Virus record (IMG/VR): IMGVR_UViG_3300042691_030495 | Source: a virus | Length of the DNA stretch: 64,000 nucleotides | Direction: 5' to 3' (one strand) | In this document: positions 5,400 through 37,115 of the stretch, in pieces | Numbering within the stretch: the first letter of the stretch is position 1 | Layout: every line of letters begins with the position of its first letter | Made by a program: the position numbers and the translations under genes | Notes under the pieces: generated by a model | Told to the model about the DNA's origin: nothing | Seen by the model: only the letters and a program-made list of their open reading frames with translations | Database searches by the model: none

Positions 5400-5675
5400 A
5401 TGGGAAGAATGTATGCCGAAGGCATAGCAGAATCAGAAATACCTCTAGAGCAACAGATAGAGTGGCACCTAAAGGGTAATCACTATCCTCCGGTCCCGAA
5501 GTCCATGGTCAAGCCTTGTATGGAAGCTATTGAAGCTTGCAACGAAGAAGATTGGAACAGGGAAATTGCAATGCCCGAGGGAGTTCTTTACCGAGGCTTG
5601 ACTTTTGCTCCGGCCTCAGCTATTGTGGAAGCACATCACTTAGATACTTGGATTACAAACGAAGGGGATTACTAA
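5400..5675 (+). CDS. hypothetical phage protein (HLxGNHYPPVP motif)
   Basis: SD AAAGGGAG before ATG 5400. Confidence 0.75.
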   Translation: MGRMYAEGIAESEIPLEQQIEWHLKGNHYPPVPKSMVKPCMEAIEACNEEDWNREIAMPEGVLYRGLTFAPASAIVEAHHLDTWITNEGDY

Positions 5676-8899: not shown

Positions 8900-8961
8900 G
8901 TTGGATAATTTCTGTGGCACTACAGTGTGGGCTGCACCTGCGAGGATCCTGTGGAGATTTT

Positions 8962-9018
8962 TTGTTATCAATTTGTTATCAAAGAACCCCCCAAGTTGTC
9001 AGTAGGGTGTGCGAGTAT
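8962..9018 (+). promoter_or_regulatory. early promoter, TTGTTA-repeat class
   Basis: TTGTTA 8962/8973, TTGTC 8996, weak -10 at 9013. Confidence 0.7.
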
Positions 9019-19498: not shown

Positions 19499-21250
19499 TT
19501 GGGAATTTTCAATAAGAACAGCAAAAACACACGTAGAGAATCTACTAACAGTCGCTTTAGGGCTTCGGTGCCTCGCACTGCGACCCCTGTTGCTCCAGGC
19601 ATCTCTGTAGATTCTTTCGGTTTGGTTTATGCAGAGCCCGCGGCCTACAACACCCCTAGAGCTTTAACTGCAGCAGCAGCCCAGATAAAAATTGGTGACA
19701 AAACAGAGGCAGAGCAGTTTAAAGCTCGTAGACAGTCCGCTTCTTCGTCCTGGCAGACAGAAGCTTGGGAGTACTACGACGCGATTGGCGAAATTAAGTA
19801 CGCTTTTAATCTTGTTGCTGCAGTTGTATCCCGTATTCGAATCTACGCAGCATCTGTAGACAACCCAGCCGAGGCTCCTGTTCCTGTAAATATCTCAGCG
19901 AACATAGATCCTCAGCTAGCAAGAGCCGCTGAGCGCGCATTGGCAAGACTTAACTCAGCATACGGTGGTCAGGCAGGTCTTTTGAAAGACGCTGCTCTAA
20001 ATCTTCAGGTTACTGGAGAGTGCTACCTAGTTCAGGTTCCAGAACGTGTTGGCACTGGTCTTCCAGAGAGCTGGGACATGAGATCTGTAGATGAACTACA
20101 GCTAGACTCCAGAGGAAACTATGTCATTAGCCCAATTCGCGATGTTTCAGGATCTTCTTCCAACCAAACTTCAAAAAGTGCGATAAAACTTCCTAAGGAC
20201 GCGTTTATTGGACGCATTTGGAAGTCTCACCCTCGTTACTCACTAGAGTCAGACTCATCGCTGCGCGGTCTACTCGATCTTTGCGCTGAACTTCTACTTC
20301 TTAACCGCACCTTCCGTGCAACTGCACGTTCACGCTTGAACGCTGGTGCTCTCTACTTGCCAGACGGACTGTCAGTAGCATCTTCTCCGGATCCAGACTA
20401 CCCATACGATGAAGATGGCGAATACAACGAGCAGTATAACGCCGAGGAAGCTGCTGACGACTTCGAAGATCAACTAATCGACGCGATGACCACTCCGATT
20501 AAGGACGAAGACTCCGCGAGCGCCGTTGTCCCACTTATCATTCGTGGACCTGCAGAACTTGGCGACAAGATCAAGCAGTTTAAGTTCGAGCGTTCGTTTG
20601 ACGCCAGCCTTGTGCAGCGTGCTGACCGAGTCCTTGAGAGAATCATGCAGGGTCTAGACGTCCCTAAGGATGTTGTAACAGGTCTTGCAAATGTTAAGTA
20701 TTCAAACGCTCTACAGATTGACGAAGCACTCTACAAGGCTCACATCGAACCTCTAATGCTTCTTATTGTTGACGCTTTGACTGTTGTTTACTTGCGTCCA
20801 TACCTAATTGCAAACGGCTATGACGAAGAAGCTGTAGCCAAGATTCAGGTTTGGTATGACCCAAGTCAGGTAGCAACCAGAAATGACAGAGCTACCGACG
20901 CAGACAGCGGATTCGACAAGATGGCAGTCTCCTACAACACATGGAGACGCGCGCACGGATTCTCAGATGCAGACGCACCTAGCCCAGCAGAACTTGCACT
21001 ACGCCTTGTAATTGAGAAGGGTATGATCACCCCTGAGCTAACTCAAAGCATGCTAGAAGCGGTTGCGCCTGAACTTAAAGATCTTATTAACGCAGCAAGT
21101 CAAGCCAGCTCTGTAGCTCCTATGCCACCAGAGATTGAGCAATTGCTAGCTGGACAGCCAGTGGCTCCTGGAGCAGAGGCACCTACCGAAGAGCCTGCAG
21201 CAGAAGCCCCGGGTCTTGCAGAACCAGTAGCTCCTCAAGAAGGGCAGTAA
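19499..21250 (+). CDS. portal protein
   Basis: Size and position; WQTEAWEYYDAIGE, GECYLV, RIWKSHP motifs of actinophage portals. Confidence 0.9.
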   Translation: MGIFNKNSKNTRRESTNSRFRASVPRTATPVAPGISVDSFGLVYAEPAAYNTPRALTAAAAQIKIGDKTEAEQFKARRQSASSSWQTEAWEYYDAIGEIKYAFNLVAAVVSRIRIYAASVDNPAEAPVPVNISANIDPQLARAAERALARLNSAYGGQAGLLKDAALNLQVTGECYLVQVPERVGTGLPESWDMRSVDELQLDSRGNYVISPIRDVSGSSSNQTSKSAIKLPKDAFIGRIWKSHPRYSLESDSSLRGLLDLCAELLLLNRTFRATARSRLNAGALYLPDGLSVASSPDPDYPYDEDGEYNEQYNAEEAADDFEDQLIDAMTTPIKDEDSASAVVPLIIRGPAELGDKIKQFKFERSFDASLVQRADRVLERIMQGLDVPKDVVTGLANVKYSNALQIDEALYKAHIEPLMLLIVDALTVVYLRPYLIANGYDEEAVAKIQVWYDPSQVATRNDRATDADSGFDKMAVSYNTWRRAHGFSDADAPSPAELALRLVIEKGMITPELTQSMLEAVAPELKDLINAASQASSVAPMPPEIEQLLAGQPVAPGAEAPTEEPAAEAPGLAEPVAPQEGQ

Positions 21251-21252
21251 TA

Positions 21253-21708
21253 GTGGACCAGCCATCTAGCGTAGATCTTGCAAAGAAACTTGCTCATCTA
21301 CTGTCTGACGTAGTTTCTCTGTCTTTTATTTCTCAGGGGCACCACTGGAACATTAAAGGTTTTAACTTTTATCAGTTCCACGCGTTCTTTGCAGAAATAT
21401 ACGAAGACACTTCTTCAGCGATTGATCCTCTTGCAGAAAACATTAGAAAGCTAGGATTCAATGCCCCCTATCTTCTAACTGACTTTTCCGAGATGACCTG
21501 CATCAACCAAGAACGAATTGACGGAGACGCCATTGAGTCTATTAATTCTTTAGTTAGTGCAAACAGTATTGTAACTAACTGCTACGCAGATGCTTTTGAG
21601 CTTGCAGAAAACTGCAACCAACCAGGCATTGCAGACTTCCTTGCTGGAAGACATGAGATGCACCAGAAGTGGCAGTGGCAGTTAGAGTCAACTTTAGGGA
21701 TTAGATAA
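21253..21708 (+). CDS. dps: Dps (ferritin-like DNA protection protein)
   Basis: HHWNIKGFNFYQFHAFFAEIY...IDPLAENIRKLG signature with ferroxidase H/H/D/E. Confidence 0.92.
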   Translation: MDQPSSVDLAKKLAHLLSDVVSLSFISQGHHWNIKGFNFYQFHAFFAEIYEDTSSAIDPLAENIRKLGFNAPYLLTDFSEMTCINQERIDGDAIESINSLVSANSIVTNCYADAFELAENCNQPGIADFLAGRHEMHQKWQWQLESTLGIR

Positions 21709-22400
21709 TGTCTTCGTATTTAGAGTCTGCTTTTGGTGGAAACTCAAATATCTCGGGATACTCTTTAGTCCCAGAAGAGCAAGAGTTTGCTGACGCAATC
21801 CTAAAGGTTGCCAAAAAGTACGGAAAGTTTAACGACGACAACAGCGGTGTTTGGGTTGGGTACACTCCTGCCTCAGAGAATGAGGAGAACGCTCAGATTG
21901 GCGTTAAGTGTGGCAACTGTGTCTTCTTCATGGGCGGAAATGCCTGCCAGATCCTAGCTGAAGCAGTGGAGGAGAACGGCCTATGCCGTCTTGCTGTATT
22001 GCCAGATGGCGCAGTCACTGCTACAGCTGGCTCAAAGCCTGCTCCGAAAAAAGATCAAATCAAAGGATCTAAAAAGAACCCTAAAGGTTCGGCCGACGAT
22101 GGCAAGAGCGTAACTTTCAACGAAACCATAATTACGTCCCTCAAGAACAAGGTAGAAAGCCACAACGAAAAGGCAGAAGCTGGCAGAAAAGCAACTCTTC
22201 CAACTCTAAAAGCTGTATACCGCAGGGGTGCTGGAGCTTTCTCTACATCTCACAGGCCTGACCAGAATCGCAACTCTTGGGCTATGGCCAGAGTGAACGC
22301 ATACCTGCACTTACTAAAAACCGGATCTCCTAAAAACTCAAAGTACACAACAGATAATGACCTGCTACCAAAGGGTCACCCAAAGTCAACAAAGAAATAA
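21708..22400 (+). CDS. two-domain head-module protein: HiPIP-like 4-Cys domain plus basic helical domain
   Basis: CGNCVFF...C...GLC; LKAVYRRGAGAF...WAMARVNAY. Confidence 0.7.
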   Translation: MSSYLESAFGGNSNISGYSLVPEEQEFADAILKVAKKYGKFNDDNSGVWVGYTPASENEENAQIGVKCGNCVFFMGGNACQILAEAVEENGLCRLAVLPDGAVTATAGSKPAPKKDQIKGSKKNPKGSADDGKSVTFNETIITSLKNKVESHNEKAEAGRKATLPTLKAVYRRGAGAFSTSHRPDQNRNSWAMARVNAYLHLLKTGSPKNSKYTTDNDLLPKGHPKSTKK

Positions 22401-22473: not shown

Positions 22474-25400
22474 GTGAGCCAAGCGTTCGATTCCCTACTC
22501 GCTAAGATCGAGAACTACTACTCTGACGCGGATTACACCGTTCAAGACGCCGAGCACCTGTCTCGCATCGCTATCTCCGAATACGCTTCGACTCAGAATG
22601 CTCTAGTAGCTTCGGCTCGTCAACTTTCCAATAATTCAGTACAAAAAATTATTGACCTAACAATTAATAAGCACATAACTGCAGACCCAAGCGAGTGGAT
22701 GCTCTTCGCAGCAAATGCCGTAGACAACGTAATTAACTACTCACAGCGCGGTGTACTAGCTTCTGGTCTTTCAGACTTTACAGACTTTTTACCAGTAGGT
22801 CACCCGTCAAGAACTAACCGCGGGGCTATGACCGCCTCTGCACTAAACCAGGCCACCGCGCTTTGGACTGCTGCAGACCCTCGCATTGCTTCTGACGAAG
22901 CTAGATACGACACATACAAAGCATACGCAAGCCAGCCAGGATCAGTTGAAGCAGACTACGCAGCGTATAAACTTTCAGCACTAGTTGCAGCAGGTTATGT
23001 TCCAGAAGACATTAGTCTTCCGATCACTGCAGCGTTCAGAATGAGCTTTGCAATGCGCTCCGCAATGTCTAAGGCACTTGCTGCTGTACGTCGTCGCCAC
23101 CGCGATGGTAGATTCGCTGAAGAGTTTGGACGTCTAAAGGGATTCTTTAGCCGTGGAGACGGAAGCATTTTCTCTGAAAACGGAAGAATTGTTGGCGCTG
23201 AGCGTGGGACCAACAACTTTGAGGTAGAGTTCAGCGGATCCGACGAGATTCCAGATGGTATCTACACCATCGATGCAGCTAAGACAGATTCCGTTAAAGC
23301 TGTTCTATCTAAGCGCGCACTGAAAGGCGTTAAAGGAAAGCGCAGTATTGCAGTGCCGACTCAGGCAGAGCGAGACGCTGCTATTCCTCTAGACGAGTTT
23401 ATAAAAACTAAAAAAGATGCACCAGAGGGTTGGACTAAGAACGAAGATGGATCTTTTACATCTAAGACAGGTCAGACACTACGTCAGGTAGACACTCGCC
23501 CTGAAGGTGACTACATGTTTGAAGGTGCTGGCGAAAGTGGTGCCGAAGATCCTAACGAACCGTTCTTTGAGTTAACTGACAGAGACGGCGAAATAATCGG
23601 TGTTGCTCAGGACTGGGCCGGCGCAAACAAAATTGCACTTACCTACGATGCTTTTGAAGAAGACAGCAAGCCAGAACCAGAAGAGCCAGGTCTCGACCAA
23701 GACGCTCCTGCCTCTGATCAAGAGGATCCTACAGCCATTGGAAAACCGGAAGACCCTAGAGCAGCTGCAATAGAAGATTTAGTATCCAACCTTGACTCTG
23801 CTGAAGCAAGAAGAGAATTTGAGCGCATGGAGCGGAGAGATGGCTCTTGGCTTGACTCAGAGCAGCCATCAATAGACGCGTATGGACCTGACGATAAGAA
23901 TCTGAACTGGAATGCTGAGTACGACAAAACTACTAAGGACCTTATAGAAAAGATTTTTAGTGACCCAGCAGTTGTCGAAGCTCGTAATGATAGGCCACTA
24001 GCTAAAACGCAAGAGGGCGACCCTGAGGACTGGGAATTAGACAATTGGTACCAAGAAGTCGGCGCTGCAATTTCATGGGCAGCAAAAAAGTACGCAGAAG
24101 AAGCTGCACCGGGCCTCGACCAAGATGCTCCTCGAAGCTTAAATGAGCCAGAAGACTCCGCTGTTGACATCGGTCCAGACCTAGAGAGAACTGACAGCGG
24201 AGATTTAGAGTACTACTCTGACACTGCTGGTGCTGACATCTCTAAAGTTGGAGACAAGTGGCAGCTCGTCAAGAGCGGGTTTGAGGATATTGAACAGCAC
24301 CCACGCGGTGTCTACCAGTATGAAGACACTAAGATGTTTGACTCCGAGCAAGAAGCCATAGCTGAAGCACAAAAGTGGATTGATTTAGGTAAGTCTTCTG
24401 ACTTCTACGACTTTATGTATAACGACTGGTTTGATGGCCAAGCAGATGGCCTAGACCAGGATGCCAAAAACCCTAACTGGTTTGAAGACGCTATTGACTT
24501 TGATGCCATAGACAATCAGGATAGCTGGAAAGACCTAGGCGGAGGCTCCAGAGAGTACACCTCACCAGACGGAAAACTAAAACTAACTTTTGAACCAGAC
24601 GGCGACTCGGACGGTGAGGGTGGACTTGTAGACGCCTCCGGAATTACTGTTGAGTACGATGGTCAATCTGTTGGCAGCTTTAAGGCAACCGAGCGCGACC
24701 TCACGTCTCCAGGAGAAGTTGCAGACGCCCTTAGCCGTACTTTAGCTGAAGCTAATTTTAATCCTAACGATTTAATAAAATTTGATGATTTTGGAAATTA
24801 CGGCTTCGAGCGAGAGAGCGGTCTTGGCACAGTTTCTATCTCTAAAAAGTACGACCCAAACACTAAGAAACTCCAGTGGGAAGTAACTAAAGAAGCTCGC
24901 GACCTTATTGATGAGAACGTTGAGCACTCTTTCTTTGAGCAAAAAAAGTTTGACTCCTTAGATGACGCAAGAGCTTTCGCTGAAGAGTTTGCTCAGATTC
25001 TTAACGATGACGACAAATTCTCCAAATTCCTAAACGATGACTGGGCAGACAGAGACTACGACTACGGCTTTGACCAAGCAGGCGGATCTACGACAGATAC
25101 CGTAAAGCAGCTTGCTGACGGATACAACATCACTCCTCGTGTAGAAATAGTTTACAATTCGAACACCAAGCAGTATGAGCGTTCAGTAAACTCGAACGAG
25201 TTTGAAGCAGACGGTGACTTCTACGACTTTGGTTCGGCAGTAGTTAACCTGTCTGAATATGCTCCAGGTAAATGGGTAGCAACTATCTTCTATGGAGATA
25301 GGGATGGCAGTGGCCAGGATACCCTTGAACTTGAGCAAGACTTCAACAGCCCCGAGGAAGCCTTCGAGTGGGTAGCTAACGGATTTGGTAAAGGGTTTGA

Positions 25401-27915
25401 CAACTCTCAGGTTGCGGAAGGTGTATTAGAACGTCAAGACCTAGATGAGATGGCTAGCTTCCTGCAGAACCCTAAGTACAAGGATGCTCACGACGAAGTC
25501 CGTGATGTTTACGATGAGCTCAACTCAAAGTACTTTGAGCAGGCTCCTGGATCAGGAGAGATCGAGGCCACAGAAGGCGGAAATGCTTCCTACAAAGGAC
25601 CAGATGGATCTACTGGATCTATAAAGTCCGACGGCTCCGGCACCTGGGAAGGCTCCTTCACAGACGCTGAGGGAGAAGTCTCCACCAGAAAGTTTAAAGC
25701 AGAAGATAAAGCTGCTGCTTGGCTACAGAAAAAAGTAGACGACTCTAAATTAGCTGCGTTTAAGAAAGAAAATGGCGGGCTATCTCCAAAGCAGCTCGAG
25801 CCAGCTACCTCTAAGCAGTATGACCTACTGCAGGAACTTTTTGACGAGCGCGACGAGATTGATTCTCTAACTTCTGACGCCATCAAAGATGCTCTAGACA
25901 ACCGCAACCTTTCTAAGTCTCAGATTTCTGCCCTATTTGGCGATCTTCAGAAGAAGCCGTTCAAGCCAGGAGTAGACTCCACTAAGCCAACCGACAGAAT
26001 GTTGAACTCTCTACAGGGCTACCTGACTACAAAGCAGATTTCTCCAGAAGAGCTAGACGACATCCTCAGTCAGCTTGAGGCAGGACTAGACCGCCCTGGC
26101 ATCGAGGCCTTGACAAACAAGCTACGTCGTAAGCCAGATAACGCTGACGCAGCTGGCCTTGACCAAGATGTTAACTCCAAGATTGACCCCACTATGCCTG
26201 ACTCAGCAGTAGGTGCTGATGATGACATTAAGCAAGAAATTGAAGACGCTATTGAGCGCGCCCGTAGCGATCACGAGCGCCTATTTGACGAAATAAATGC
26301 AAAAGAAGAAGACGGAGAGATAACTCCGGAAGAGGCAGAGTCCCAGCGGGATGAGCTAGAGCAGGGCTTGGAGCAGTTCCAGTGGGCTGCCCGTAGACGC
26401 TACTACGATTATCTTTGGGAGACCGGAGAGTTCAACGAAGCGTACAACGATGTTCTAGAAGCATGGAACTCGCAGAGTTTCCGCGATGAGGAAAGAGATA
26501 GAGCTTCACTATTTGACGAAGAAAACGAAGAGGATGAGGGATTAGACCAAGACGCTCCAACCAAGCCTCTCACCGAAAAGCAGCTAGAGCCAGCTTCTGA
26601 CGCTCAGTACAACTACCTACAGAGTCTTGTTGAATCCAAGATGAATGTAGACGCTGACACTGCCGCCGCTGTTGCTGAAGCAGCTACTAACAAGAACCTA
26701 AGCAAGGCTCAGGCCGGTGCTCTTATTGGCAAGCTCCGTGTTCTAGATGACAAAGAAAATCTTGGTCAGTACGGCAAGCCTTCTCAAAAGATGATTGACT
26801 CGGTTAATCGCGACGTCTACGCTAAGGGACTTTCCGAAGAAGACAGAAACGAGATTTTAAAAGATCTTGACAGCTTGTCTAAGGCTGATGTCTCAAGCAT
26901 CATAAGCCAGCTCAAGGAGATGCCAAACGTTCCTGGAGGTCTCGACAACTACATCAAGTCTTTAGTTGAAGATGGAGATCTTGAGGCACTTAAGAGACTA
27001 AGAGCTGACGTTAGAAATGAAGACTCCTTCTCTGTATTAGACAAAGCTATAGCTGATGTCGAGGCCGGAAACACTCCTGGACTAGATCAGGCTGCTCCTT
27101 CAGCTCCGGCTTCAGGACCTCTCTATGACAGGGACGAAGCTTCGAACCTACTAGACGAGATAAAAGCGGCTGAAGACGCTGGTGAAATTGGTAGCACCTT
27201 CTTGCCAACAGACTCTCTTAAGGATTTTGACCCTGAAGACATCGGAGATGCGGCTAGCATGTATGTCGAGTTAGACGATGCTATCGGCAATGTTGGAGAG
27301 GGCAGCTTAAGACAGAAGCTAGAGCAGTTTGCTGAAAAACTACTCAGCAGCATCCAGTCTAGGCTTGGCCCAGTTGAGTCCGCTAAGCGCGACAGCGATG
27401 ATATCGGAAGCGAATTAGAGTTTGATCGCACTTCTAGAAGAGCTAACGATCTTGTTGAGTTCTACTACCCCTCAGAAGGTATCGCTTTTGACCAGCTAAA
27501 TGAGCCAGGAAACAGCAATGTTGGAGACAACAGAGGCGGCGGCTGGGAAGCACGAGTTGCTCTAGACGAAGATGAAGAAGAGGAAACTTGGGTTGCAACC
27601 TTAACCTCTCCCGAAAACGACAGCCAAAACGAGCAAAGAAGTTTTGACAACCAAGAAGACGCGGCTCGCTGGGCAGCAGAAAACTTAGAGTCTAATAATA
27701 ACGAGCTTTTGCCATCAGAATTAGATGAGTTTTTGAGTGGACAAATCTTCTCGACTTATGCTGACAACCCTCAGGCGCTAATCTCTAAGCTGAACGACAT
27801 AGCTGAGTGGTTCCGAGGAACCCGTAGAGGCGACGGAGAAGACGTAGCTAGGGGAATCCTAGAATACGTAGATCGACTAGAAAACCTTCTTGGAGACTCT
27901 GCCCCAAAAGCGTAG
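22474..27915 (+). CDS. giant acidic modular (polyvalent) head-associated protein with G[LF]DQ linkers
   Basis: 1813 aa between portal and protease; seven G[LF]DQ[DA] plus variants; internal domain repeats. Confidence 0.85.
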   Translation: MSQAFDSLLAKIENYYSDADYTVQDAEHLSRIAISEYASTQNALVASARQLSNNSVQKIIDLTINKHITADPSEWMLFAANAVDNVINYSQRGVLASGLSDFTDFLPVGHPSRTNRGAMTASALNQATALWTAADPRIASDEARYDTYKAYASQPGSVEADYAAYKLSALVAAGYVPEDISLPITAAFRMSFAMRSAMSKALAAVRRRHRDGRFAEEFGRLKGFFSRGDGSIFSENGRIVGAERGTNNFEVEFSGSDEIPDGIYTIDAAKTDSVKAVLSKRALKGVKGKRSIAVPTQAERDAAIPLDEFIKTKKDAPEGWTKNEDGSFTSKTGQTLRQVDTRPEGDYMFEGAGESGAEDPNEPFFELTDRDGEIIGVAQDWAGANKIALTYDAFEEDSKPEPEEPGLDQDAPASDQEDPTAIGKPEDPRAAAIEDLVSNLDSAEARREFERMERRDGSWLDSEQPSIDAYGPDDKNLNWNAEYDKTTKDLIEKIFSDPAVVEARNDRPLAKTQEGDPEDWELDNWYQEVGAAISWAAKKYAEEAAPGLDQDAPRSLNEPEDSAVDIGPDLERTDSGDLEYYSDTAGADISKVGDKWQLVKSGFEDIEQHPRGVYQYEDTKMFDSEQEAIAEAQKWIDLGKSSDFYDFMYNDWFDGQADGLDQDAKNPNWFEDAIDFDAIDNQDSWKDLGGGSREYTSPDGKLKLTFEPDGDSDGEGGLVDASGITVEYDGQSVGSFKATERDLTSPGEVADALSRTLAEANFNPNDLIKFDDFGNYGFERESGLGTVSISKKYDPNTKKLQWEVTKEARDLIDENVEHSFFEQKKFDSLDDARAFAEEFAQILNDDDKFSKFLNDDWADRDYDYGFDQAGGSTTDTVKQLADGYNITPRVEIVYNSNTKQYERSVNSNEFEADGDFYDFGSAVVNLSEYAPGKWVATIFYGDRDGSGQDTLELEQDFNSPEEAFEWVANGFGKGFDNSQVAEGVLERQDLDEMASFLQNPKYKDAHDEVRDVYDELNSKYFEQAPGSGEIEATEGGNASYKGPDGSTGSIKSDGSGTWEGSFTDAEGEVSTRKFKAEDKAAAWLQKKVDDSKLAAFKKENGGLSPKQLEPATSKQYDLLQELFDERDEIDSLTSDAIKDALDNRNLSKSQISALFGDLQKKPFKPGVDSTKPTDRMLNSLQGYLTTKQISPEELDDILSQLEAGLDRPGIEALTNKLRRKPDNADAAGLDQDVNSKIDPTMPDSAVGADDDIKQEIEDAIERARSDHERLFDEINAKEEDGEITPEEAESQRDELEQGLEQFQWAARRRYYDYLWETGEFNEAYNDVLEAWNSQSFRDEERDRASLFDEENEEDEGLDQDAPTKPLTEKQLEPASDAQYNYLQSLVESKMNVDADTAAAVAEAATNKNLSKAQAGALIGKLRVLDDKENLGQYGKPSQKMIDSVNRDVYAKGLSEEDRNEILKDLDSLSKADVSSIISQLKEMPNVPGGLDNYIKSLVEDGDLEALKRLRADVRNEDSFSVLDKAIADVEAGNTPGLDQAAPSAPASGPLYDRDEASNLLDEIKAAEDAGEIGSTFLPTDSLKDFDPEDIGDAASMYVELDDAIGNVGEGSLRQKLEQFAEKLLSSIQSRLGPVESAKRDSDDIGSELEFDRTSRRANDLVEFYYPSEGIAFDQLNEPGNSNVGDNRGGGWEARVALDEDEEEETWVATLTSPENDSQNEQRSFDNQEDAARWAAENLESNNNELLPSELDEFLSGQIFSTYADNPQALISKLNDIAEWFRGTRRGDGEDVARGILEYVDRLENLLGDSAPKA

Positions 27916-27933
27916 CCCCCAGCGAGGGGGCTG
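27903..27933 (+). promoter_or_regulatory. programmed -1 ribosomal frameshift signal
   Basis: In-frame heptamer C CCA AAA (27903-27909) then hairpin AGCCCCC-agcga-GGGGGCT (27914-27932). Confidence 0.8.
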
Positions 27934-30221
27934 ACAGTGGTGTTGGTCTAGATCAAGATGCCGCGGCTATTGACAGAATTAACAAGGTTCTAGCTAAGTA
28001 TCGCCCTGAGCCAGCGCCAAGCAACTCTGTACGTCCTGCGGTAGCAGTGGGCGAGCCAGGATCTAAAGCTAACCCACTCAAGCTAGATGACGAGCAGCTA
28101 CAAGAAAAAACTACACAGGTCACTAAAACCAACCTAGCTGCTTCAATTTCAGTTCTTTCTGAACTATATGACGCTTTTGATAATGTTAAAAAATTCGCAT
28201 TTTGGCGAAGAAAATGGGACCGCAACGCTACTAGGCCTATACCAGTAAACCCTGGTACTGGAGCCTACTACAAAGGTCCCAACGTGTTTGCTTTAGAAGA
28301 GGCAGCGGCTAAGAACGGATTTAGCGACCCTCGTTGGATGACCGCTCAGCAAATACTAAATATGGGTGGGTCAGTTCCTAGCGGTACCAAAGGTACACAA
28401 ATCCTAGTCCCTCAGGTTTTGGTTACTGATGTCAAAGGCAAAGTTGTAGAGCTGTATGAGTTTATGAAGGTTACTGTTTTTAATGGCGACCAGGTCGATG
28501 GAATCCCGTCATATAACCAAGATGACAACAAATCATATACTCCAGAAGAAGCTGCGAATATTCTTTTAGACCGCCTACGCGAAGCCTCTGAGATCAGAGA
28601 CACCGGACAACCAAATGTATTTGGGATTCAGCTTGATGAAGATCAAAATCCTCGATGGATGCCAAACTACGGTTCTTTTCAGCCTGAAAAAATACGACTA
28701 CCGCTTAGAGCAAATTTTGAGGATGACGAAGAGTGGTTTAACACTCTAGCTCACGAACTTATCCACTCTACGGGTAAACTTAACCGACTTGATAGAAAAG
28801 AACTAGATAAAGCTTTTGAAGGTGATGACTCAAGTAGGGCGGAGGAAGAGCTTACTGCAGAGCTAGGTGCCATGATTTTAAGTCGAATGTTTGGAATAGG
28901 TTCTGATTCTAAAAACTCTACAGCATACTTACTTAACCACTTAAAAAATGTTAAAGAGCAAGATCGCAACAACGCTGTAACCGCTGCAGTGTCTAGAGCA
29001 CAGGTTGCGGTTGAGTACTTACTGGGGAATGATGTTTTGCCTCAGTGGGACCCACTAAAGACTAAGGTCTTCCCAACCATACAGTCTGAAAGATTAGATG
29101 TCACTACTCCAAAAGCTTCAAGCTTAAACCCAGACCCAACTCCTGACTTTGTTGATGCCCAGTTAGCTGGCTTTGATCAGGCAGTAGGAGAGGAGTCAGT
29201 CGACCAGGGTAAGTCAATATCAAACAGCAAAGACGCCAAAGAAAAAGTTCTGTCTAGCCTGTTAGAAAAAATTAAAGAAGGTAAGACTCCTTGGCGTAAA
29301 CCGTTTAAAGAAGGATCAAACTTTGCAGGAGCAGACTTACCTAGAAACCCAGCATCAAAGCATATCTACAATGGCATAAACGCGATGGTTCTAAGACTAA
29401 ACCAGCAGCTTTCTGGATATGACGACCCTCGTTGGATGACATACAAGCAAGCTCAGGATCTCGGTGGAAACGTTAGAAAAGGCGAGAAGGGTGTTCCAAT
29501 TCTTATACCTTTCAAGCAGGTTCGCAAAGAGAAAGATTCTGCAACTGGACAAGAAGTAGTTACCGGTAGCTTTATAAGATTTGGAACCGGAACAGTCTTT
29601 AACGTCTCTCAGATTGATGGCATTACTCTTCCTACTGCTAAAGAAGAGGCAGGAGAACCAAAGACTCCTCTAGAGGCTCAAGAATTTATTTTAGAGCGCT
29701 ACAAAAAGTCTATGGAAGCTAAAGGTCTAAAGACACCAGAAGTTGAGTACACCTACATTGGAGAGTACGGGAACCACGCTTCTTCTCCAAACTGGAGTCC
29801 TTCTCTAGATAGAATTACACTTCCAACCAAGGAGCAGTTCAACAGTCCAGAAGACATGTTTGACACTATTGCCCACGAGCTAGCCCACAGCACGGGACAC
29901 AAGGATCGCCTAGATAGGACAGAACTTACCAGCAAGTATGGATCTGATAGCGCCGCTCGCGGCCAAGAGGAGCTCATAGCTGAGATAGCAGCTGCTATTT
30001 TGGCGAGCATGTTTGGAGTCAATAGCGACTTTGATAACACTGCAGCTTACGTAAAGAGCTGGCTTGCAGCCCTAAAGGATGACCCTAACATGGTTACCCT
30101 ATCCTCCTCAGAAGCCCAGAAGGTAGTAGACTACATACTAGGCATGGATCTAGGAGACTGGAGTCCAATAGAAGGCTACAAATCTACAGTTACTAAAAAA
30201 GATGGAGACTCAGATGAGTGA
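27909..30221 (+). CDS. ardC: tandem ArdC-like units (ssDNA-binding domain plus zincin HExxH peptidase, x2); probably the -1 frameshift extension of 22474-27915
   Basis: PWRKP...YNGIN...DPRWMTYKQ...GGNVRKGEKG; HELIH and HELAH; EEL.AE; frame open back to slip site and encodes GLDQDA. Confidence 0.85.
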   Translation, partial: SVAPSEGADSGVGLDQDAAAIDRINKVLAKYRPEPAPSNSVRPAVAVGEPGSKANPLKLDDEQLQEKTTQVTKTNLAASISVLSELYDAFDNVKKFAFWRRKWDRNATRPIPVNPGTGAYYKGPNVFALEEAAAKNGFSDPRWMTAQQILNMGGSVPSGTKGTQILVPQVLVTDVKGKVVELYEFMKVTVFNGDQVDGIPSYNQDDNKSYTPEEAANILLDRLREASEIRDTGQPNVFGIQLDEDQNPRWMPNYGSFQPEKIRLPLRANFEDDEEWFNTLAHELIHSTGKLNRLDRKELDKAFEGDDSSRAEEELTAELGAMILSRMFGIGSDSKNSTAYLLNHLKNVKEQDRNNAVTAAVSRAQVAVEYLLGNDVLPQWDPLKTKVFPTIQSERLDVTTPKASSLNPDPTPDFVDAQLAGFDQAVGEESVDQGKSISNSKDAKEKVLSSLLEKIKEGKTPWRKPFKEGSNFAGADLPRNPASKHIYNGINAMVLRLNQQLSGYDDPRWMTYKQAQDLGGNVRKGEKGVPILIPFKQVRKEKDSATGQEVVTGSFIRFGTGTVFNVSQIDGITLPTAKEEAGEPKTPLEAQEFILERYKKSMEAKGLKTPEVEYTYIGEYGNHASSPNWSPSLDRITLPTKEQFNSPEDMFDTIAHELAHSTGHKDRLDRTELTSKYGSDSAARGQEELIAEIAAAILASMFGVNSDFDNTAAYVKSWLAALKDDPNMVTLSSSEAQKVVDYILGMDLGDWSPIEGYKSTVTKKDGDSDE

Positions 30222-30381
30222 AAAGAAACCAGACATCCTAGGTGGTTACACTGAAAATGATCCAGAATACTGGGCACTTTTAGCAAAGATCATAGGGAAC
30301 CCTGTGCCAGAGTACGAAGACGACAGCGAGTTCGTTGACGAAAATGGCGTTGTCATAAAAGACATAAAGCCCGCTGAATAA
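30214..30381 (+). CDS. small acidic hypothetical protein (55 aa)
   Basis: SD GGAG; overlaps upstream stop; not in ORF track. Confidence 0.6.
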   Translation: MSEKKPDILGGYTENDPEYWALLAKIIGNPVPEYEDDSEFVDENGVVIKDIKPAE

Positions 30382-30439: not shown

Positions 30440-33400
30440 ATGAATAACCTAATTGGCCGCTCTGGCAGCTTGTCTCTCTATGCTAATAACGAGCATGGAG
30501 TGATTATTGACTCCTCCATCGGAGCAGTTGTTGCTAGTGGTGCTGCTTCTGACGTTTACTTCCTTGAGAGCTGGGATCTTCCGACTGATCCGGGGGCTAA
30601 AGCTGAAATTCTATTAGCTGAAAAAGCCTTGAGCGCTCTTGAAGAAAAAGCTATTGTTGCTGCCGCCGACAGAATGTACACAATTCCGAAAACTGTACAG
30701 GCTGAAGCTAAGAAAGCTTTAGAGTGGCGCAAAGAAGAGAACCGTGGGGGAACTCCTGTAGGTCTTAACACTGCTCGCACTCTTGCAAAAGGCGGTCAGA
30801 TTGGCATTCGTAAGATTCGCCACATTGCAAAATACTTCCCTCGTCATGAGGTAGACAAAAAAGGCAAGGGCTGGAAGCCTGGCCAAGAAAACTATCCATC
30901 TAACGGACGCATCGCGTGGGCACTCTGGGGTGGAGATGCAGCATGGCGCTGGGCACGCACAATTGTAGAGCGTGAAAACAAAAAGCCTGTAACTTCAGGG
31001 GGCTACTACCCAGGGCAGACAAACTTCGAAACAAGCTCGGAAGATATAAATCCATTTAAATACGCTAACGATCTTGACATGCACTACGGACCTGAATTTT
31101 TAGTCAGAGTCTGCTTAGACGGTTCCGGAATGGATCGCCTATACATGGTTGACATCGACGGATCGATTTACGTGTGGGACGACTCTAACTGGGACAACAT
31201 GGGACATGTCGATGGTGATGTGTGGACATACGATCGTATGCTAGATGATGTTTACGATACTCAGGAAAAAACTCACGTAATTATCGACCCTCAGTCGGCT
31301 CTGCAAATAGCAGCACGCATGGCTGTAGATCCTGGTTGCAAAGTAACTATGTATGAGCTTGACCAGGATGAAGCAGCTCTTACTATGTCAGGGCTTCAGG
31401 ATGAAGACTGGGACTTTATAGACCAAGTAATTGTTGCAGCCGGTACAGCTGACCCAACGACATCCCAGGCAGATAAAGATGGTGACGGAGTACTAGACTC
31501 TGATTTCTTATCTGAAAAAGCAGAAAACCAACCTAGAGATGCACGCGGTCAATTTGCTGCTGCAGGTTCTAGGGTTATTGTTGGTGGCGACGCCCAGCGC
31601 GGGTCAGGTGTTATTACAAAAGTAGACAGCAAGACCGGAATGGTTTCCGTTCGACTTGACAGCGGAAAAGAAATTGAAGTAGACGCTAAGTACACCGAAG
31701 GCGAAAAAGGCTTTGTTGGCCCTAGAGCCGTACCTAAGACCGTAGCCCCATTAGACCTTTCTGGAATTATTGGAGAATCTAGAACTCCAATTAACATGCC
31801 TAATGCTCACCTTCCTGGAACGCTACCTCCGATGTCCAGTAGAGACATTGACAACATGCTTTACAACTGGCCTAAGTACGTATCTGACATGCGCAGTTCC
31901 TACAAGCCAGCAGACGCAGCAGACAAAGAACGAGTAAAAAAGACCTGGGGACTTGAAAAGTTTGCAGGAGAAAACTCTATTGTTGCCGCAGCGGAAACAG
32001 AAAAGACGCTAACTCCAGCTACCTCAGATGTTCCACCTAAATACCTAGCAATAGTTACAGAGGAAAATCCTCAGGACGTAGTAGATCTAGTTGCACTGGT
32101 TCCAGCCAGTGCTACCTCTACCGAGCCTATTGCCTACACTAGAGATGGTGACAAGTGGGTCCGCGACGATCAGACCATGGCTGACCTCCGCTCTTCAACA
32201 AAGCCGCCTGTTATTGAGCTAGACAAAGAGTCTCTAAATGATGTGCTTACTCAAATGTCTGAAACCGAAAAAGCCCCAACAAAGGGCATAGAAGAGTTTT
32301 CTACATTAAAAAATATTAATGCTATCTTTGATGCTTTTGTTGCAGCTGGCGGTTTAGACCGTAACCGAGGAAACGCGGAAGAGCTTCGCCGTTACTGGAC
32401 TTCAGGTAAGGGTGCAGCCAAGATCCGTTGGGGAACCCCGGGGGACTGGACTAGATGTGTTCGTCAGCTTTCTAAGTACATGGGACCTAGAGCTAAGGGT
32501 TACTGCCAGCTCAGACATAAGGATGCCACGGGAGTATATACAGGCAGTAGGCTAAACCCCGGAAGAGAAAACTCTATGGAATCCCAGATGTTTTCGTCCT
32601 TAGAAGATTTTAACCAGAAAGTTATAGCCCACTCTGAGCTTGTAGCTAGGGCCGCGCACGCTAAAGAAAGATTTGCTGTAACTGCAGGAGCAACTCCAAT
32701 GATGGACTCTGGCGCTAGGTTTACTATCCCTCTTTTGATACCAGAGGAGCTAGAGTCTGGCGATGGAAGAAAGTTCAAGAAGGACTCAATAACACTTAGA
32801 GAACTTCCGCTACCTTTGCTATGGCAAATTAAGACTGGAGAAGGTCACGCCGGATCTGTAGTTGTTGGTCGGATTGACTACATAGAGAGAACCGAGAACG
32901 GATTAGGCAACGCCTATGGAGTTTTTGACACTGGAGCTTACGGAAAAGAAGCTGAACGTCTAGTTAGGAATGGATTCCTACGTGGAGTCTCCGCCGACCT
33001 AGATCAGTTTGAGGCTAAAGAAGATAAGAAGCCTAAGCCTGAAGGTTCTGCGGAACTAGAAGACGAGGGAGAGATCGGCAAAGACAAACTCACGGTCAAT
33101 AGGGCACGCGTAATGGCTGCTACAATTGTAGCAAAGCCTGCATTCCAGGAATGCACTATTTCTATTGACGAATCAGGCTACCAGGAGGAAGAAAACATGC
33201 CCCTAACCGACGGTCTCTATGAGGAGACAATTGACTCTACCGTCGTGCCGCTAGTTGCCTCAGGATTTTTAGATTCAGAGATTCCTGTAGTTCCACCACA
33301 GGACTGGTTCGAAAACCCTAATCTAACTAAGCCAACCCCTCTAACTGTAGACCCAAGCGGTCGCATTTATGGTCACATTGCAGCATGGCACGTAAACCAC

Positions 33401-34999
33401 ATTGGTATGCCTCGCTCGACTCGTCCACCTCGCTCTAAGAGCAAGTACTCCTACTTCCACACTGGTGTTGTTCGCACAGACGCTGGTAAGGATATTCCAG
33501 TCGGACAGCTAACTCTTGCAGGCGGCCACGCAGATTTAACTGCTAGCGCATCTCAGGCTGCTAAGCACTACGACGACACCGCTTCAGCAATTGCTGACGT
33601 TTGCGCCGGAGAAGACGAGTACGGAATCTACGTATGCGGTTCACTACGCCCAGGCGCAACCGAAATGCAGATTCGTGCACTACGCGCTTCTGCTCCTTCA
33701 GGCGACTGGAGACCAATCAACGGCTCACTTGAGCTAGTTGCAGTTTGCCAAGTTAACGTCCCAGGATTCCCTATTGCTCGTGCACTTGTTGCATCTGGCA
33801 AGGTTATGGCTTTGGTTGCTGCTGGCGCTAGCTTCTTTGCAATTATGAAGAGCGAGCACGTAGAGCACTTTGTAACTAGAGCAGAGCGTCTATCTCAGCT
33901 AGCTGCTTCAACTCCAGACTTAAAGTCTAGAGTTAAGAAAGCCAAAAAAGAAGCCAAGACTTATGCAATAACCGCTGCGGCTAAAAAGGTTGAGACCATG
34001 CGTGAGCGGGCACTTATTGCTGCTGCTGCAGCCGAGCTTTCAAAGATTAGCGAATTGCAGCGTAAACATCTTGCAGTATCTGGCAAAGCACTTCCAGATG
34101 GCTCATACCCGATTCGCAACGTAGAAGATCTAAAGAATGCAATACAGGCTTACGGAAGATCAAATCCAGAAGATCGCAAAGCGGTTAGAGCTCACATTCG
34201 CAAGCGCGCAGAAGCTTTAGGTAAAACTGACCTAGTTCCAGAAAACTGGAAGGCTGCTGCCATTGTAGATGTGCAGAGCTCCGCAGAAAAGATGCGCTCA
34301 GTTATTGCAGCTGTCAACGCAAAGCTTACTGAGTTTGCTGAAGTCGACGAGATCACTGACGCTGACCTAGAAAAGCTTAAGGACGCTAAAACAGAAGCTG
34401 ACAAGCAGACCGAAGAAGAAATTCAGCAGGCAGAAGACGTCCGCACTGGAAAGACTACTGCAGAAGATAAGTTTGATGAGGATGGCCGCACAAAATTTAC
34501 GCCAAAGACTCAGCCTCGCGATGCTAAAGGTAAGTACCGCAAGGTCTTGGCTAGATTAAAGCAGAACCTAGGAGTAGCCGGTCTACAGAAGGCACTACTT
34601 AAGGTTCAAGAAGCCGAAAACCTAGAGTTTTCCGGTAACTACACCAAGTCGGCTGCTGCCAGCTCAGAGCTTTTGGACATGATTGACAGATTGGACACTA
34701 AGGCGCTAAACCCAGAGGCCTTGGAGAACGTTCGACTAACTGCCGCAGAGCTAGGCAAGACTATTGCCAACCTGCCCCTGCCTTTTGGCAAGGAATCATC
34801 AAAATTAAGATTTAGCGATTTACCGTCTGGACTCAAGGATCTCATCGAAAAGATGATTACTCGGGTCGAGGCCAAAATCGGTAAAGAAGACGCGGCCGTC
34901 GCCACTAAAGGCCTGCAGTCCTATATGTCTGGAGCAGATGTCTACTCCCAGGGTGAAATTCAGTCTGAGATGAGCAAGCTACTCCGACTCCTTACCTAA
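30440..34999 (+). CDS. multidomain capsid maturation (prohead) protease
   Basis: ESGDGRKF...LPLLWQ...GHAGSVVVGRI...FLRGVSADLD (HK97/herpes-type His and Ser); directly before capsid gene; several accessory domains. Confidence 0.8.
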   Translation: MNNLIGRSGSLSLYANNEHGVIIDSSIGAVVASGAASDVYFLESWDLPTDPGAKAEILLAEKALSALEEKAIVAAADRMYTIPKTVQAEAKKALEWRKEENRGGTPVGLNTARTLAKGGQIGIRKIRHIAKYFPRHEVDKKGKGWKPGQENYPSNGRIAWALWGGDAAWRWARTIVERENKKPVTSGGYYPGQTNFETSSEDINPFKYANDLDMHYGPEFLVRVCLDGSGMDRLYMVDIDGSIYVWDDSNWDNMGHVDGDVWTYDRMLDDVYDTQEKTHVIIDPQSALQIAARMAVDPGCKVTMYELDQDEAALTMSGLQDEDWDFIDQVIVAAGTADPTTSQADKDGDGVLDSDFLSEKAENQPRDARGQFAAAGSRVIVGGDAQRGSGVITKVDSKTGMVSVRLDSGKEIEVDAKYTEGEKGFVGPRAVPKTVAPLDLSGIIGESRTPINMPNAHLPGTLPPMSSRDIDNMLYNWPKYVSDMRSSYKPADAADKERVKKTWGLEKFAGENSIVAAAETEKTLTPATSDVPPKYLAIVTEENPQDVVDLVALVPASATSTEPIAYTRDGDKWVRDDQTMADLRSSTKPPVIELDKESLNDVLTQMSETEKAPTKGIEEFSTLKNINAIFDAFVAAGGLDRNRGNAEELRRYWTSGKGAAKIRWGTPGDWTRCVRQLSKYMGPRAKGYCQLRHKDATGVYTGSRLNPGRENSMESQMFSSLEDFNQKVIAHSELVARAAHAKERFAVTAGATPMMDSGARFTIPLLIPEELESGDGRKFKKDSITLRELPLPLLWQIKTGEGHAGSVVVGRIDYIERTENGLGNAYGVFDTGAYGKEAERLVRNGFLRGVSADLDQFEAKEDKKPKPEGSAELEDEGEIGKDKLTVNRARVMAATIVAKPAFQECTISIDESGYQEEENMPLTDGLYEETIDSTVVPLVASGFLDSEIPVVPPQDWFENPNLTKPTPLTVDPSGRIYGHIAAWHVNHIGMPRSTRPPRSKSKYSYFHTGVVRTDAGKDIPVGQLTLAGGHADLTASASQAAKHYDDTASAIADVCAGEDEYGIYVCGSLRPGATEMQIRALRASAPSGDWRPINGSLELVAVCQVNVPGFPIARALVASGKVMALVAAGASFFAIMKSEHVEHFVTRAERLSQLAASTPDLKSRVKKAKKEAKTYAITAAAKKVETMRERALIAAAAAELSKISELQRKHLAVSGKALPDGSYPIRNVEDLKNAIQAYGRSNPEDRKAVRAHIRKRAEALGKTDLVPENWKAAAIVDVQSSAEKMRSVIAAVNAKLTEFAEVDEITDADLEKLKDAKTEADKQTEEEIQQAEDVRTGKTTAEDKFDEDGRTKFTPKTQPRDAKGKYRKVLARLKQNLGVAGLQKALLKVQEAENLEFSGNYTKSAAASSELLDMIDRLDTKALNPEALENVRLTAAELGKTIANLPLPFGKESSKLRFSDLPSGLKDLIEKMITRVEAKIGKEDAAVATKGLQSYMSGADVYSQGEIQSEMSKLLRLLT

Positions 35000-35120: not shown

Positions 35121-37115
35121 GTGTACGACCAAATTAAAACTCAGCTGGACACCATCGCTGAGCTTAGCGACGAACAAGTCGCAGAGCTTCAGTCAGATGT
35201 TGTTTCGCAGTTTGAACTGGTTGAGGGTGAAGATCCTACTCCTGAGACAGTTGATGCTATGACGTCGCTAGCCGATTCTCTTGACATGATTCGTGGCGAG
35301 CTTTCTCGCCGTGAGTCATTGGCTGCAGAGCTTGCAGCAAAGGCCGCTGAAGCCGTTGCTCGTGTTAAGGGCCAGGCTGACGACGCAGGAGAGGAAATGG
35401 CTATGACCGAAGACGAGCCTATGGAGGACGAAACTCCTATGGAGGACGCCCCTATGGAGGAAGCACCAGCTTCTGAACCAGAGGCCGAAGTCGAGGTAGA
35501 GGCAAAAGAAGAAGACAAAGAAGATGAGGATGAGGCCATGAAGGCTTCAGCTGAAATTTCTGAGGACGCTCCCGAGCTTGTTACCGAAAGCCCAGTCGAA
35601 GCAGAAGCTTCTTCAGAAGAAGTTGCAGAAATTGCAACTTCAGAAGAAGTTGTTGCTGAAGCATCAACCAATCAGGAAGACGGTTCTGAACTATCAACAA
35701 CCGAAGAAACCGCAGTAGAAACTGCAGAACTAGCAACTGAAGTTGCTGAAGGTTCTGAAGCTTCAACTGAAGAAAATATCGAATCATCAATCGCTCTTGT
35801 AGAAGAGCAGGAAGAGCAGGCCCCAGTGACCGCCGCAGCCGAACAGCCTTTCGAGGCCCCAGCTGACCGTCAGCCTGTTGTTCAGGTAACCGAAGCTCCA
35901 GTGGCAATCACCGCTGGCGCAGATATTCCTGGCTACACCGCTGGCAGCACAATCAACGACATGTACGAGGTAGCCCAGGCTATGGAGAAGCGCATCCACT
36001 CGCTTCGTCGTGTCAACGGAGGAGACGGAGAGCAGCACATTGTTGCATCTGTAACCACCTCGTTCCCAGAGGAGCGCGTCCTCTCAACCGATGCAGAGTC
36101 TAACTCGATCAAGATCAACGCTGTTTCAAGCCAGGCACTTGTTGCTTCTGGTGGACACGCAGCGCCTCTAGAGGTCAAGTACGACATCTACGCAATCGGT
36201 TCTACCACTAACCGCCCAGTACGTGACTCATTGCCACGTTTCCAGGCAGACCGCGGTGGTATCCGTTACGTAACCCCACCAAGCTTTGCTGCTGGTTCAT
36301 ATGCTGACGCTGTTGGCGTTTGGACTGCTGCTGTAGACGCTGACCCAGAGGCTGCTGTAAAGGCAAGCCTAACTGTTTCAGCTGCTGCAGAGCTTACTGC
36401 TACCACTGACGCTGTAACCCTACAGCTACAGTTCGGTAACCTTATGACTCGCGCTTACCCAGAGTTGATTGCTCGCCACAACGAGCTAGCTCTAGTACAG
36501 CACGCACGTGAGGCTGAGCAGTACGTAATTAGCAAGATTGAGGCCGGCTCTACCGCTGTTACTTCTGGAACCCTAATCGGTTTTGGTCGCGACTTCCTAG
36601 TGTCAGTCCGCAAGGCAGCTGTTGCTTACCGTTCCCGTCACCGCATTGCTCAGAGCACTACTCTGACCGCAATTGTTCCTGACTGGATCTACGACGCAAT
36701 GGCAGCTGACCTAGCTCTAGCTATGCCAGGAGACGGTACTCTGTCTGTTGGCCGTGGCGAGATCGAGGGCTACCTAGCACAGCTAAACGTGAACCTAGTT
36801 GCATCACCTGACATGACCGTTTACGGTTCTCAGGGTACTGCTGCACTTCTAGAGTTCCCAGACAGCTTCAAGTGGTACCTATTCGCTGAGGGAACATTCT
36901 TGTTCCTTGACGGTGGTTCACTAGACCTAGGTATCATCCGCGACAGCTCCCTTGTTGGAACCAACGACTACAAGATGTTCGTTGAGACCTTCGAAGGTGT
37001 TGCAAAGGTTGGTATCGAGGCACTTGTTGTCACCCAGACCGTTAACGTTAACGGTGTGGCTGCTGCTCTACGCGACACCACTGGTGGCGCAACCGCAGCT
37101 GCAATCGAGGTCTAA
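35121..37115 (+). CDS. major capsid protein with fused N-terminal acidic scaffold
   Basis: Strong SD AGGAGG; coiled/acidic N-terminus; capsid domain after ALVASGG; terminator follows. Confidence 0.9.
   Translation: MYDQIKTQLDTIAELSDEQVAELQSDVVSQFELVEGEDPTPETVDAMTSLADSLDMIRGELSRRESLAAELAAKAAEAVARVKGQADDAGEEMAMTEDEPMEDETPMEDAPMEEAPASEPEAEVEVEAKEEDKEDEDEAMKASAEISEDAPELVTESPVEAEASSEEVAEIATSEEVVAEASTNQEDGSELSTTEETAVETAELATEVAEGSEASTEENIESSIALVEEQEEQAPVTAAAEQPFEAPADRQPVVQVTEAPVAITAGADIPGYTAGSTINDMYEVAQAMEKRIHSLRRVNGGDGEQHIVASVTTSFPEERVLSTDAESNSIKINAVSSQALVASGGHAAPLEVKYDIYAIGSTTNRPVRDSLPRFQADRGGIRYVTPPSFAAGSYADAVGVWTAAVDADPEAAVKASLTVSAAAELTATTDAVTLQLQFGNLMTRAYPELIARHNELALVQHAREAEQYVISKIEAGSTAVTSGTLIGFGRDFLVSVRKAAVAYRSRHRIAQSTTLTAIVPDWIYDAMAADLALAMPGDGTLSVGRGEIEGYLAQLNVNLVASPDMTVYGSQGTAALLEFPDSFKWYLFAEGTFLFLDGGSLDLGIIRDSSLVGTNDYKMFVETFEGVAKVGIEALVVTQTVNVNGVAAALRDTTGGATAAAIEV

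Follow-up and report, generated by a model that had tools for sequence, protein, structure and literature searches.

A giant gene in the head module of a siphovirus-like lake actinobacterial phage very probably ends in a programmed -1 ribosomal frameshift, which would append two antirestriction (ArdC) units to its product. The gene, open reading frame 1 (ORF1), and the overlapping -1 frame (ORF2) lie in the IMG/VR virus record IMGVR_UViG_3300042691_030495, a stretch of 64,000 nucleotides (nt) that we call the window. We show that a slippery heptamer and a hairpin stand in phase at the end of ORF1, that this signal is conserved, and that the -1 frame is coding from the slip site onward. An initial annotation of the window had proposed that a programmed shift appends the ArdC extension. 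This proposal stands: the heptamer, spacing, stop codon, and hairpin are conserved, the -1 frame carries a coding signature, the contigs are free of indels, and the fusion occurs naturally in a relative. The elements of the junction are the following.

22474..27915, + strand: ORF1, a giant modular protein of 1813 amino acids (aa) that ends in ...SAPKA
27903..27909, + strand: slippery heptamer C CCA AAA, in the X XXY YYZ phase of ORF1
27910..27915, + strand: spacer codon GCG and 0-frame stop TAG (27913-27915)
27914..27932, + strand: hairpin AGCCCCC / agcga / GGGGGCT, with a putative stimulatory role
27903..30221, + strand: -1 frame ORF (ORF2), 772 codons plus stop, the C-terminal extension of a predicted 2582-aa transframe product
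27903..28046, + strand: -1 coding stretch without ATG, GTG, or TTG, holding GLDQDA (27945-27962)

The slip-site signal is present in the letters as initially described. ORF1 closes with GCC CCA AAA GCG TAG (27901-27915), and a 7-bp hairpin, in which 27914-27920 pairs with 27926-27932, starts 4 nt past the phased heptamer. Its five-pair G-C core (27916-27920 with 27926-27930) starts 6 nt past the heptamer, within the ~5-9 nt expected of a downstream RNA structure, and is kept in 16/16 sequences (the window and 15 relatives). Taken alone, the hairpin has a folding energy of -15.8 kcal/mol (z = -3.2 relative to shuffled sequences); significance is limited to this isolated element, as the 96-nt context around the slip site gives a nonsignificant z of -0.9. 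Both parts of the signal are rare. There are only 7 in-phase XXXYYYZ heptamers in the 1813 codons of ORF1, and only two C5-loop-G5 hairpins in the 64-kb window. The other such hairpin (C5+/G5+) lies at 4084-4099 (CCCCCCGAAAGGGGGG). A GGAG located 7 nt upstream of the heptamer was considered as a stimulator and rejected, as it is not kept in relatives.

No stop interrupts the -1 frame at the slip site, and past it the frame is coding with no start of its own. It is open from 17 codons before the heptamer through 30221 and reads PK-SVAPSEGADSGVGLDQDA. Its first ATG, GTG, or TTG is the GTG at 28047, which is 48 codons past the heptamer and 34 past the GLDQDA motif. No Shine-Dalgarno match was found at this GTG, whereas most bona fide genes of the window do have one. 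All of this agrees with the initial annotation, whose predicted product sizes (1813 and about 2582 aa) are also arithmetically right (1812 + 770). The stretch 27903-28046 would be reachable only via readthrough from ORF1. When the window is compared with five relatives, the counts of differences past the hairpin at codon positions 1/2/3 of the -1 frame are 173/75/327, and differing codon comparisons divide into 214 synonymous and 201 nonsynonymous. The peptide GLDQDA..[IL].RI..[IV]L.KYR....SVRP...GEPGS..NPL is kept without any start codon. The codon-position bias, together with the presence of the family's linker motif, indicates that the post-hairpin stretch is coding in the -1 frame. Purifying selection is seen on both sides of the frame break.

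The cassette is conserved in 15/15 relatives. These were retrieved with the C-terminal 400 aa of ORF1, a query independent of the slip signal, over which they are ~30-60% identical to ORF1. The query matched six IMG/VR contigs and two metagenome contigs, and a profile-free exhaustive search of 1.84 billion representatives returned 16 proteins. All homologues that end with the ORF1 C-terminal domain terminate in PKA or KKA, and the DNA fetched for distant relatives keeps the same synteny. Every relative has the heptamer, a GCN codon, a stop, a C-rich/G-rich (C5/G5) hairpin, and an ArdC ORF in the -1 frame, so that heptamer and stem, whose conservation the initial annotation had proposed to check, are kept throughout. 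Of the relatives, 11 carry C CCA AAA and 4 carry A AAA AAA as the heptamer, always at the same position. The 0-frame stop may be TAG, TAA, or TGA, but the heptamer-GCN-stop layout is invariant, and the hairpin loops vary (AGCGA, AAAAA, GAAGA, AATGA, GCTGA, GAATC, and others). In relatives, between 1 and 35 codons of open -1 frame precede the heptamer (a single codon at four loci), and the frame then lacks a canonical start for 23-144 codons, with the linker motif 12-14 codons past the slip site. Candidate -1 starts are unaligned between relatives and have no Shine-Dalgarno matches. No match was found in a DNA search of 26900-29000 against 50,697 phage records, and the ORF2 N-terminus, used as a protein query against viral contigs, gave no relatives.

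The site, the direction of the shift, and the structure are conserved among orthologues beyond protein-coding need. The junction alignment of 16 sequences is gapless. Of the five C-G pairs of the core, four do not vary, not even where a base falls on the fourfold-degenerate third position of an Ala/Thr or Gly codon of the -1 frame. The remaining pair has the third position of a Pro codon on its 5' side; it is C-G in 14 sequences and U-A in relative L027, and the stem of L022 is shifted in register by one position. An outer stem pair changes from G-C to A-U in one sequence. Across the alignment, pairing is 90% in register versus 58-69% when slid by one column, and the hairpins fold at -10.9 to -20.3 kcal/mol (8 sequences). 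Because the core hardly varies, the argument for selection on the RNA rests mainly on synonymous-site invariance and fixed spacing.

A pattern search in which the heptamer was left free served as an internal control. Matches with a valid heptamer were found in five further viral contigs, where the upstream 0-frame ORF extends for 372 to >1900 codons as far as the end of the contig and the -1 frame stays open for 701 to >1367 codons. Matches with an invalid heptamer have short ORFs only on both sides (6/6).

The cargo past the linker varies among relatives. Three loci have an extra domain of ~300-500 aa directly past the linker, before the ArdC units, at the following positions.

L019:5194-6486: variable post-linker module
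L023:1377-4595: variable post-linker module
L001:7191-9983: variable post-linker module

The number of ArdC units ranges from one (L026, L027, and L029) to two. Since both the post-linker module and the ArdC number vary, the slip cassette is a fixed joint ahead of variable cargo. In L001, the closest IMG/VR relative, the ORF1 homologue is itself broken by an in-frame stop at 5458-5460 into 888 and 566 aa, which could reflect readthrough, mutation, or an assembly error.

One distant relative encodes both parts in a single frame. The protein P0017 (2848 aa, locus L024) shares the synteny and combines an ORF1-like scaffold with two ArdC units. Identity to ORF1 is 38% in the N-terminal domain, and the C-terminal ArdC pair is 44% identical to ORF2, reaching the last residues. 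The fused architecture is thus a natural protein. In-frame fused homologues have also been used as an argument for Mg-chelatase-like recoded genes (PMC3711429). The L024 locus (8943-8975) keeps C CCA AAA GCA in phase, with a CCCGCC/GGCGGG hairpin 7 nt downstream; in this GC-rich stretch the hairpin is not significant against shuffles. Here it is the 0 frame that leads into ArdC, a stop closes the -1 frame after 15 codons, and the logic may be inverted, such that a shift would yield the short form.

ORF2 consists of two ArdC units. Each pairs an ArdcN domain (PF08401, E 1.8e-47) with an MPTase-PolyVal domain (PF18818, E 7e-49). With E ~1e-47 for each unit, the matches uphold the ArdC identity given by the initial annotation. 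The units are placed as follows.

~28209-29057, + strand: ArdC unit 1, with HELIH
29229-29600 (ArdcN) and 29790-30098 (MPTase), + strand: ArdC unit 2, with HELAH

The domain matches thus show the ArdC hallmark, an ArdC-N single-stranded DNA (ssDNA)-binding domain followed by an HExxH zincin domain. They also show the hallmark of polyvalent proteins, which is the presence of several effector-type domains, including MPTase and ArdC-N, in one polypeptide. Polyvalent proteins are encoded among virion genes and delivered with the DNA; the gene here lies between portal and capsid genes, and its product may be packaged and delivered in this way.

ORF1 has a conserved N-terminal domain of ~400 aa and a modular remainder. 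No credible family and no capsid-family match was found for ORF1 in Pfam and PHROG. An AlphaFold model of the N-terminal 400 aa (predicted local distance difference test score 77) had no Foldseek match at E <= 0.001 in PDB or BFVD, and an ESM Atlas feature search gave no usable match. Because the fold search gave no match, we only infer a capsid-targeting role for this domain. Seven G-[LF]-D-Q-[DA] motifs (starting at 23689, 24112, 24448, 25066, 26155, 26539, and 27079) stand between apparent modules of ORF1. A six-frame scan of the window places every copy of this motif in the frame of ORF1 (7) or of ORF2 (2). The ORF2-frame copies are GLDQDA, 14 codons past the slip site, and GFDQAV (29169-29186), between the ArdC units. 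The motifs (G-[LF]-D-Q-[DA]-x) look like polyprotein protease cleavage sites or flexible linkers. Relatives carry D-L-[DN]-Q or G-F-[DN]-Q at the corresponding places. Between 24300 and 27800, a ~120-aa unit with EPA[ST]..QY..LQ.L...NL[ST]K.Q occurs at least twice, and a short ...F.S.E[ED]A..WA... unit occurs at least five times. These repeated modules have no match to a known family.

We propose that a ribosome on C CCA AAA would hold tRNA-Pro in the P site and tRNA-Lys in the A site, while the G-C hairpin, with its core 6 nt downstream, would stand at the mRNA entry channel and impede translocation. A fraction of ribosomes would then slip back by one base (CCA to CCC and AAA to AAA), read AGC GUA GCC... 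in place of GCG UAG, and translate 770 more codons. Nonslipping ribosomes would make the 1813-aa protein. Slipping ribosomes would make a 2582-aa fusion with a further G-L-D-Q-D-A linker and two ArdC-N/zincin-peptidase units. The fusion is probably the minor product. In E. coli reporters of the Mg-chelatase-like family, A_AAA_AAA gave 10% -1 frameshifting (PMC3711429).

Several points weigh against a frameshift at this site. Covariation in the stem is thin, with 2 compensatory events and core pairs that mostly do not vary, and the encoded [AT]-P...G peptide could be the source of part of the nucleotide conservation. The full stem of 7-8 bp starts 3-4 nt past the heptamer, below the usual 5-9 nt, and C CCA AAA ranks outside the most efficient heptamers in E. 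coli. Two distant relatives, Actinomycetia phage DSL-LC01 (a single 3289-aa gene) and Microbacterium phage Pumpernickel (gp82), have a giant gene without the cassette and without ArdC, so the arrangement is lineage-specific. Finally, the case is built on sequence comparison, from which the transframe protein is predicted.

The break in frame is extremely unlikely to be a homopolymer indel of assembly or sequencing, or the mark of a decaying, pseudogenized fusion. It does sit in a C4A4 run, where inserting one base would yield one continuous ORF like that of a distant relative. However, the same break is found in 15/15 independently assembled relatives, with two heptamers and three stop codons, and purifying selection acts on both sides of it. 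Junction reproducibility was compared on contigs: those from other studies' runs match 27600-28258 with 0 differences and 0 gaps, while the raw reads of run X21 gave none on the stretch. An assembly indel, which the initial annotation had named as the outcome that would overturn its proposal, is therefore contradicted by independent contigs and by all 15 relatives, only a distant relative being single-framed. A real break could instead be bridged in the transcript, if RNA polymerase slipped on the C/A run and added one base to some copies, from which the continuous ORF would be translated. The A AAA AAA variants form a 7-A run, poly-A supports transcriptional realignment in some bacteria, and the Mg-chelatase-like family has been discussed in terms of both ribosomal and transcriptional slippage (PMC3711429). 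Yet the window and 11 relatives have just C3-4A4, well under the usual >=8 bases (PMC3711429). A conserved hairpin at fixed distance and a strict X XXY YYZ phase are ribosomal rather than transcriptional traits, and the direction of the shift is identical in all orthologues. We regard polymerase slippage as very unlikely.

It is likewise improbable, if somewhat easier to credit, that ORF2 is translated independently, from a weak or noncanonical internal start or by termination-reinitiation, and that the heptamer and hairpin serve another purpose or are idle. Gene callers do put ORF2 starts 23-144 codons downstream in every relative, and internal initiation could be an additional route to free ArdC. 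The called starts, however, are not conserved in position and have no Shine-Dalgarno matches, and the lack of a start codon makes reinitiation unlikely. The -1 protein, including G-[LF]-D-Q, is conserved from 12-14 codons past the heptamer, where ATG, GTG, and TTG are absent, and at four loci the -1 frame becomes open just one codon ahead of the heptamer. An independent start would also leave unexplained an in-phase heptamer kept in all relatives in two alternative forms. The remaining alternative concerns the hairpin, a stable G-C structure directly past a stop codon, which might be a transcription terminator, an attenuator, or an RNA-processing site between two transcription units; similar hairpins elsewhere that lack the heptamer resemble ordinary intergenic hairpins. 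But here there is no T-run past the hairpin, and a terminator scan makes no call. The hairpin lies inside -1-frame coding sequence, and neither a promoter-like site nor a start follows it. This explanation is highly improbable, and programmed ribosomal frameshifting at the end of ORF1 remains our strongly favored reading.

Gene order places the site in the head module, as the initial annotation had it. The large terminase, portal, ferritin/Dps-like, and DUF5824 genes are followed by ORF1, ORF2, a small acidic ORF, a 1519-aa protein, and the major head protein, and then by adaptor, major tail, and tape-measure genes. The principal neighbors are listed below.

19499..21250, + strand: portal protein (phrog_776, E 5.7e-104)
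30202..30381, + strand: small acidic ORF of 55-59 aa, overlapping the ORF2 stop, with GGAG upstream
30440..34999, + strand: 1519-aa protein, matching head-maturation-protease and virion-protein families
35121..37115, + strand: major head protein (phrog_777, E 1.9e-81)

The portal is 73% identical to that of DSL-LC01, a metagenome-assembled Actinomycetia phage from a lake, and ~60-64% identical to those of large Microbacterium phages. Sequencing runs that contain the stretch are lake and freshwater metagenomes from 13 studies, with no RNA run listed among them. Directly past the portal (21253-22400) are a ferritin/Dps-like gene (PF00210, E 5e-16) and the DUF5824 gene, and the ferritin gene is syntenic in all relatives examined. 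A gene of 48-72 aa is called at the position of the small acidic ORF in the relatives examined. A second frameshift from ORF2 into ORF3, which is again in the -1 frame, was considered and rejected: the two are separated by the small ORF, which has its own start, and by an intergenic gap, and the frame relation is lost in L001. A G/GT-type shift was looked for before the tape-measure gene of the window, and none was seen.

The known classes of phage frameshift are tail chaperones and capsid or tail extensions (PMC5009743), and the ORF1/ORF2 site belongs to neither. The lambda G/GT tail chaperone likewise has a conserved -1 shift at an X XXY YYZ site in a phage morphogenesis operon, where it fixes a short:long ratio. 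However, lambda G/GT concerns two small overlapping ORFs of the tail module, between the major tail and tape-measure genes, and shares no homology with ORF1/ORF2. The ORF1/ORF2 site is a head-module site, and the tape-measure gene (42437) begins only 14.5 kb further downstream. In T7/T3 10A/10B, Lactobacillus phage A2, and Listeria A118/A500, a -1 shift near the end of a head gene makes a minor, C-terminally extended virion protein (PMC5009743), as would be the case here. In those phages it is the major capsid protein that is extended, by a short structural or immunoglobulin-like domain. Here, in contrast, the upstream gene is a giant noncapsid gene, the extension is a 770-aa enzyme and DNA-binding cargo, and the capsid gene is separate (35121-37115). 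The slip site of phage A2 is reportedly also C CCA AAA with a downstream stem-loop.

The cassette is nearest in form to the sites of Mg-chelatase-like AAA+/VWA genes and nearest in logic to retroviral Gag-Pol. In the Mg-chelatase-like genes, too, a stop closely follows the heptamer (A_AAA_AAR), and the stem past it is C-rich on the 5' side and G-rich on the 3' side (PMC3711429, PMC5009743). Ribosomes that stay in frame finish the upstream product at the site, those that shift make a fusion, other species have homologues fused in one frame, and frameshifting in E. coli was measured at 10-63% (PMC3711429, PMC5009743). They differ in being cellular genes for unrelated proteins, whereas the phage family mostly uses C CCA AAA. 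Gag-Pol follows a similar logic: ribosomes that shift frame where a structural or carrier ORF ends add enzymes, among them a protease, to its product, and this fixed minor fraction is packaged along with the rest and freed later by cutting at repeated sites. The parallel with the phage is by analogy only, as there is no homology and Gag-Pol belongs to another kingdom and ribosome type.

The same cassette recurs in unrelated bacterial gene pairs. One form, G GGA AAA GCC TGA followed by C6-loop-G6, joins a MoxR-like AAA_5 ATPase (0 frame, ending in GKA) to a VWA_CoxE protein of ~327 aa (-1 frame).

L053:6837-6875, L066, L081, L091, L092, and L090: MoxR/VWA cassettes, in metagenome-assembled genomes (MAGs) of Actinomycetes, Acidimicrobiales, and Iamiaceae

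These MoxR/VWA pairs probably belong to, or extend, the Mg-chelatase-like recoding class of Antonov 2013. A second form, C CCA AAA GCN stop with a C5/G5 hairpin, is found in Chloroflexota and Anaerolineae MAGs (L074:2977-2986 and L082:2605-2614, minus strand). There, an ORF of 108-144 aa ending in PKA leads into a -1 frame encoding a STAND NTPase with NB-ARC and TPR domains (568-780 aa). This site is a candidate for an undescribed frameshift.

The polyvalent proteins described by Iyer et al. 2017 (PMC5512222) are likewise large and multidomain, lie in virion modules, and use ArdC-N and zincin MPTase domains as hubs. Their MPTase has been proposed to autoprocess a polypeptide delivered with the DNA, and frameshifting is mentioned 0 times in that work (PMC5512222). 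The difference is that polyvalent proteins are encoded in one frame, while here the ArdC/MPTase part would be joined by recoding. ArdC of the IncW plasmid R388/pSa has the same pair of an N-terminal ssDNA-binding and a C-terminal HExxH metallopeptidase domain (PMC7213743). That protein is free-standing, plasmid-encoded, and ~300 aa long, whereas here two tandem units end a predicted 2582-aa phage protein. Antirestriction proteins of the ArdC type protect incoming DNA from type I restriction, which the phage units may do as well.

From the gene position, the repeated linkers, and this polyvalent model (PMC5512222), we infer packaging, cleavage, and antirestriction by ArdC. The N-terminal domain of ORF1 would carry the fusion into the procapsid, the G-[LF]-D-Q linkers would be cut to release the modules, and the ArdC units would act on entering DNA against host restriction. 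The shift may plausibly set a substoichiometric dose of ArdC per virion; one relative, with P0017, makes only the fused form. More tentatively, the whole might amount to a Gag-Pol-like strategy, a possibility that we hold to be less likely than not. The shift would fix the ratio of carrier to carrier-ArdC/zincin, and both would enter the procapsid via the ORF1 N-terminus. The G-[LF]-D-Q sites would be cut by the attached zincin or by the prohead protease, and ArdC would be ejected with the genome, blunting restriction. The X XXA AAA-GCN-stop-C5/G5 cassette would be a portable recoding module, reused in cellular MoxR/VWA and NB-ARC/TPR genes of Actinomycetota and Chloroflexota.

The mechanism is canonical, but its use to attach a polyvalent ArdC/zincin cargo to a giant head-module protein does not seem to have been described before. 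A literature search of partial coverage found no frameshift report for polyvalent or ArdC phage proteins. Gene callers annotate two genes here, a giant "hypothetical protein" and an ArdC gene whose internal start is arbitrary. The predicted ~2,500-aa product is therefore missing from databases. Our reading predicts a junction peptide ...SAPK-SVAPSEGADSGVGLDQ..., a fixed short:long ratio, and cleavage at G-[LF]-D-Q. It adds a well-supported case of recoding outside the usual phage classes and ties recoding to antidefense cargo, a link for which the literature search found no earlier example. The recurrence of the cassette in unrelated bacterial pairs suggests that a simple pattern search could find more recoded genes in Actinomycetota, Chloroflexota, and phages.

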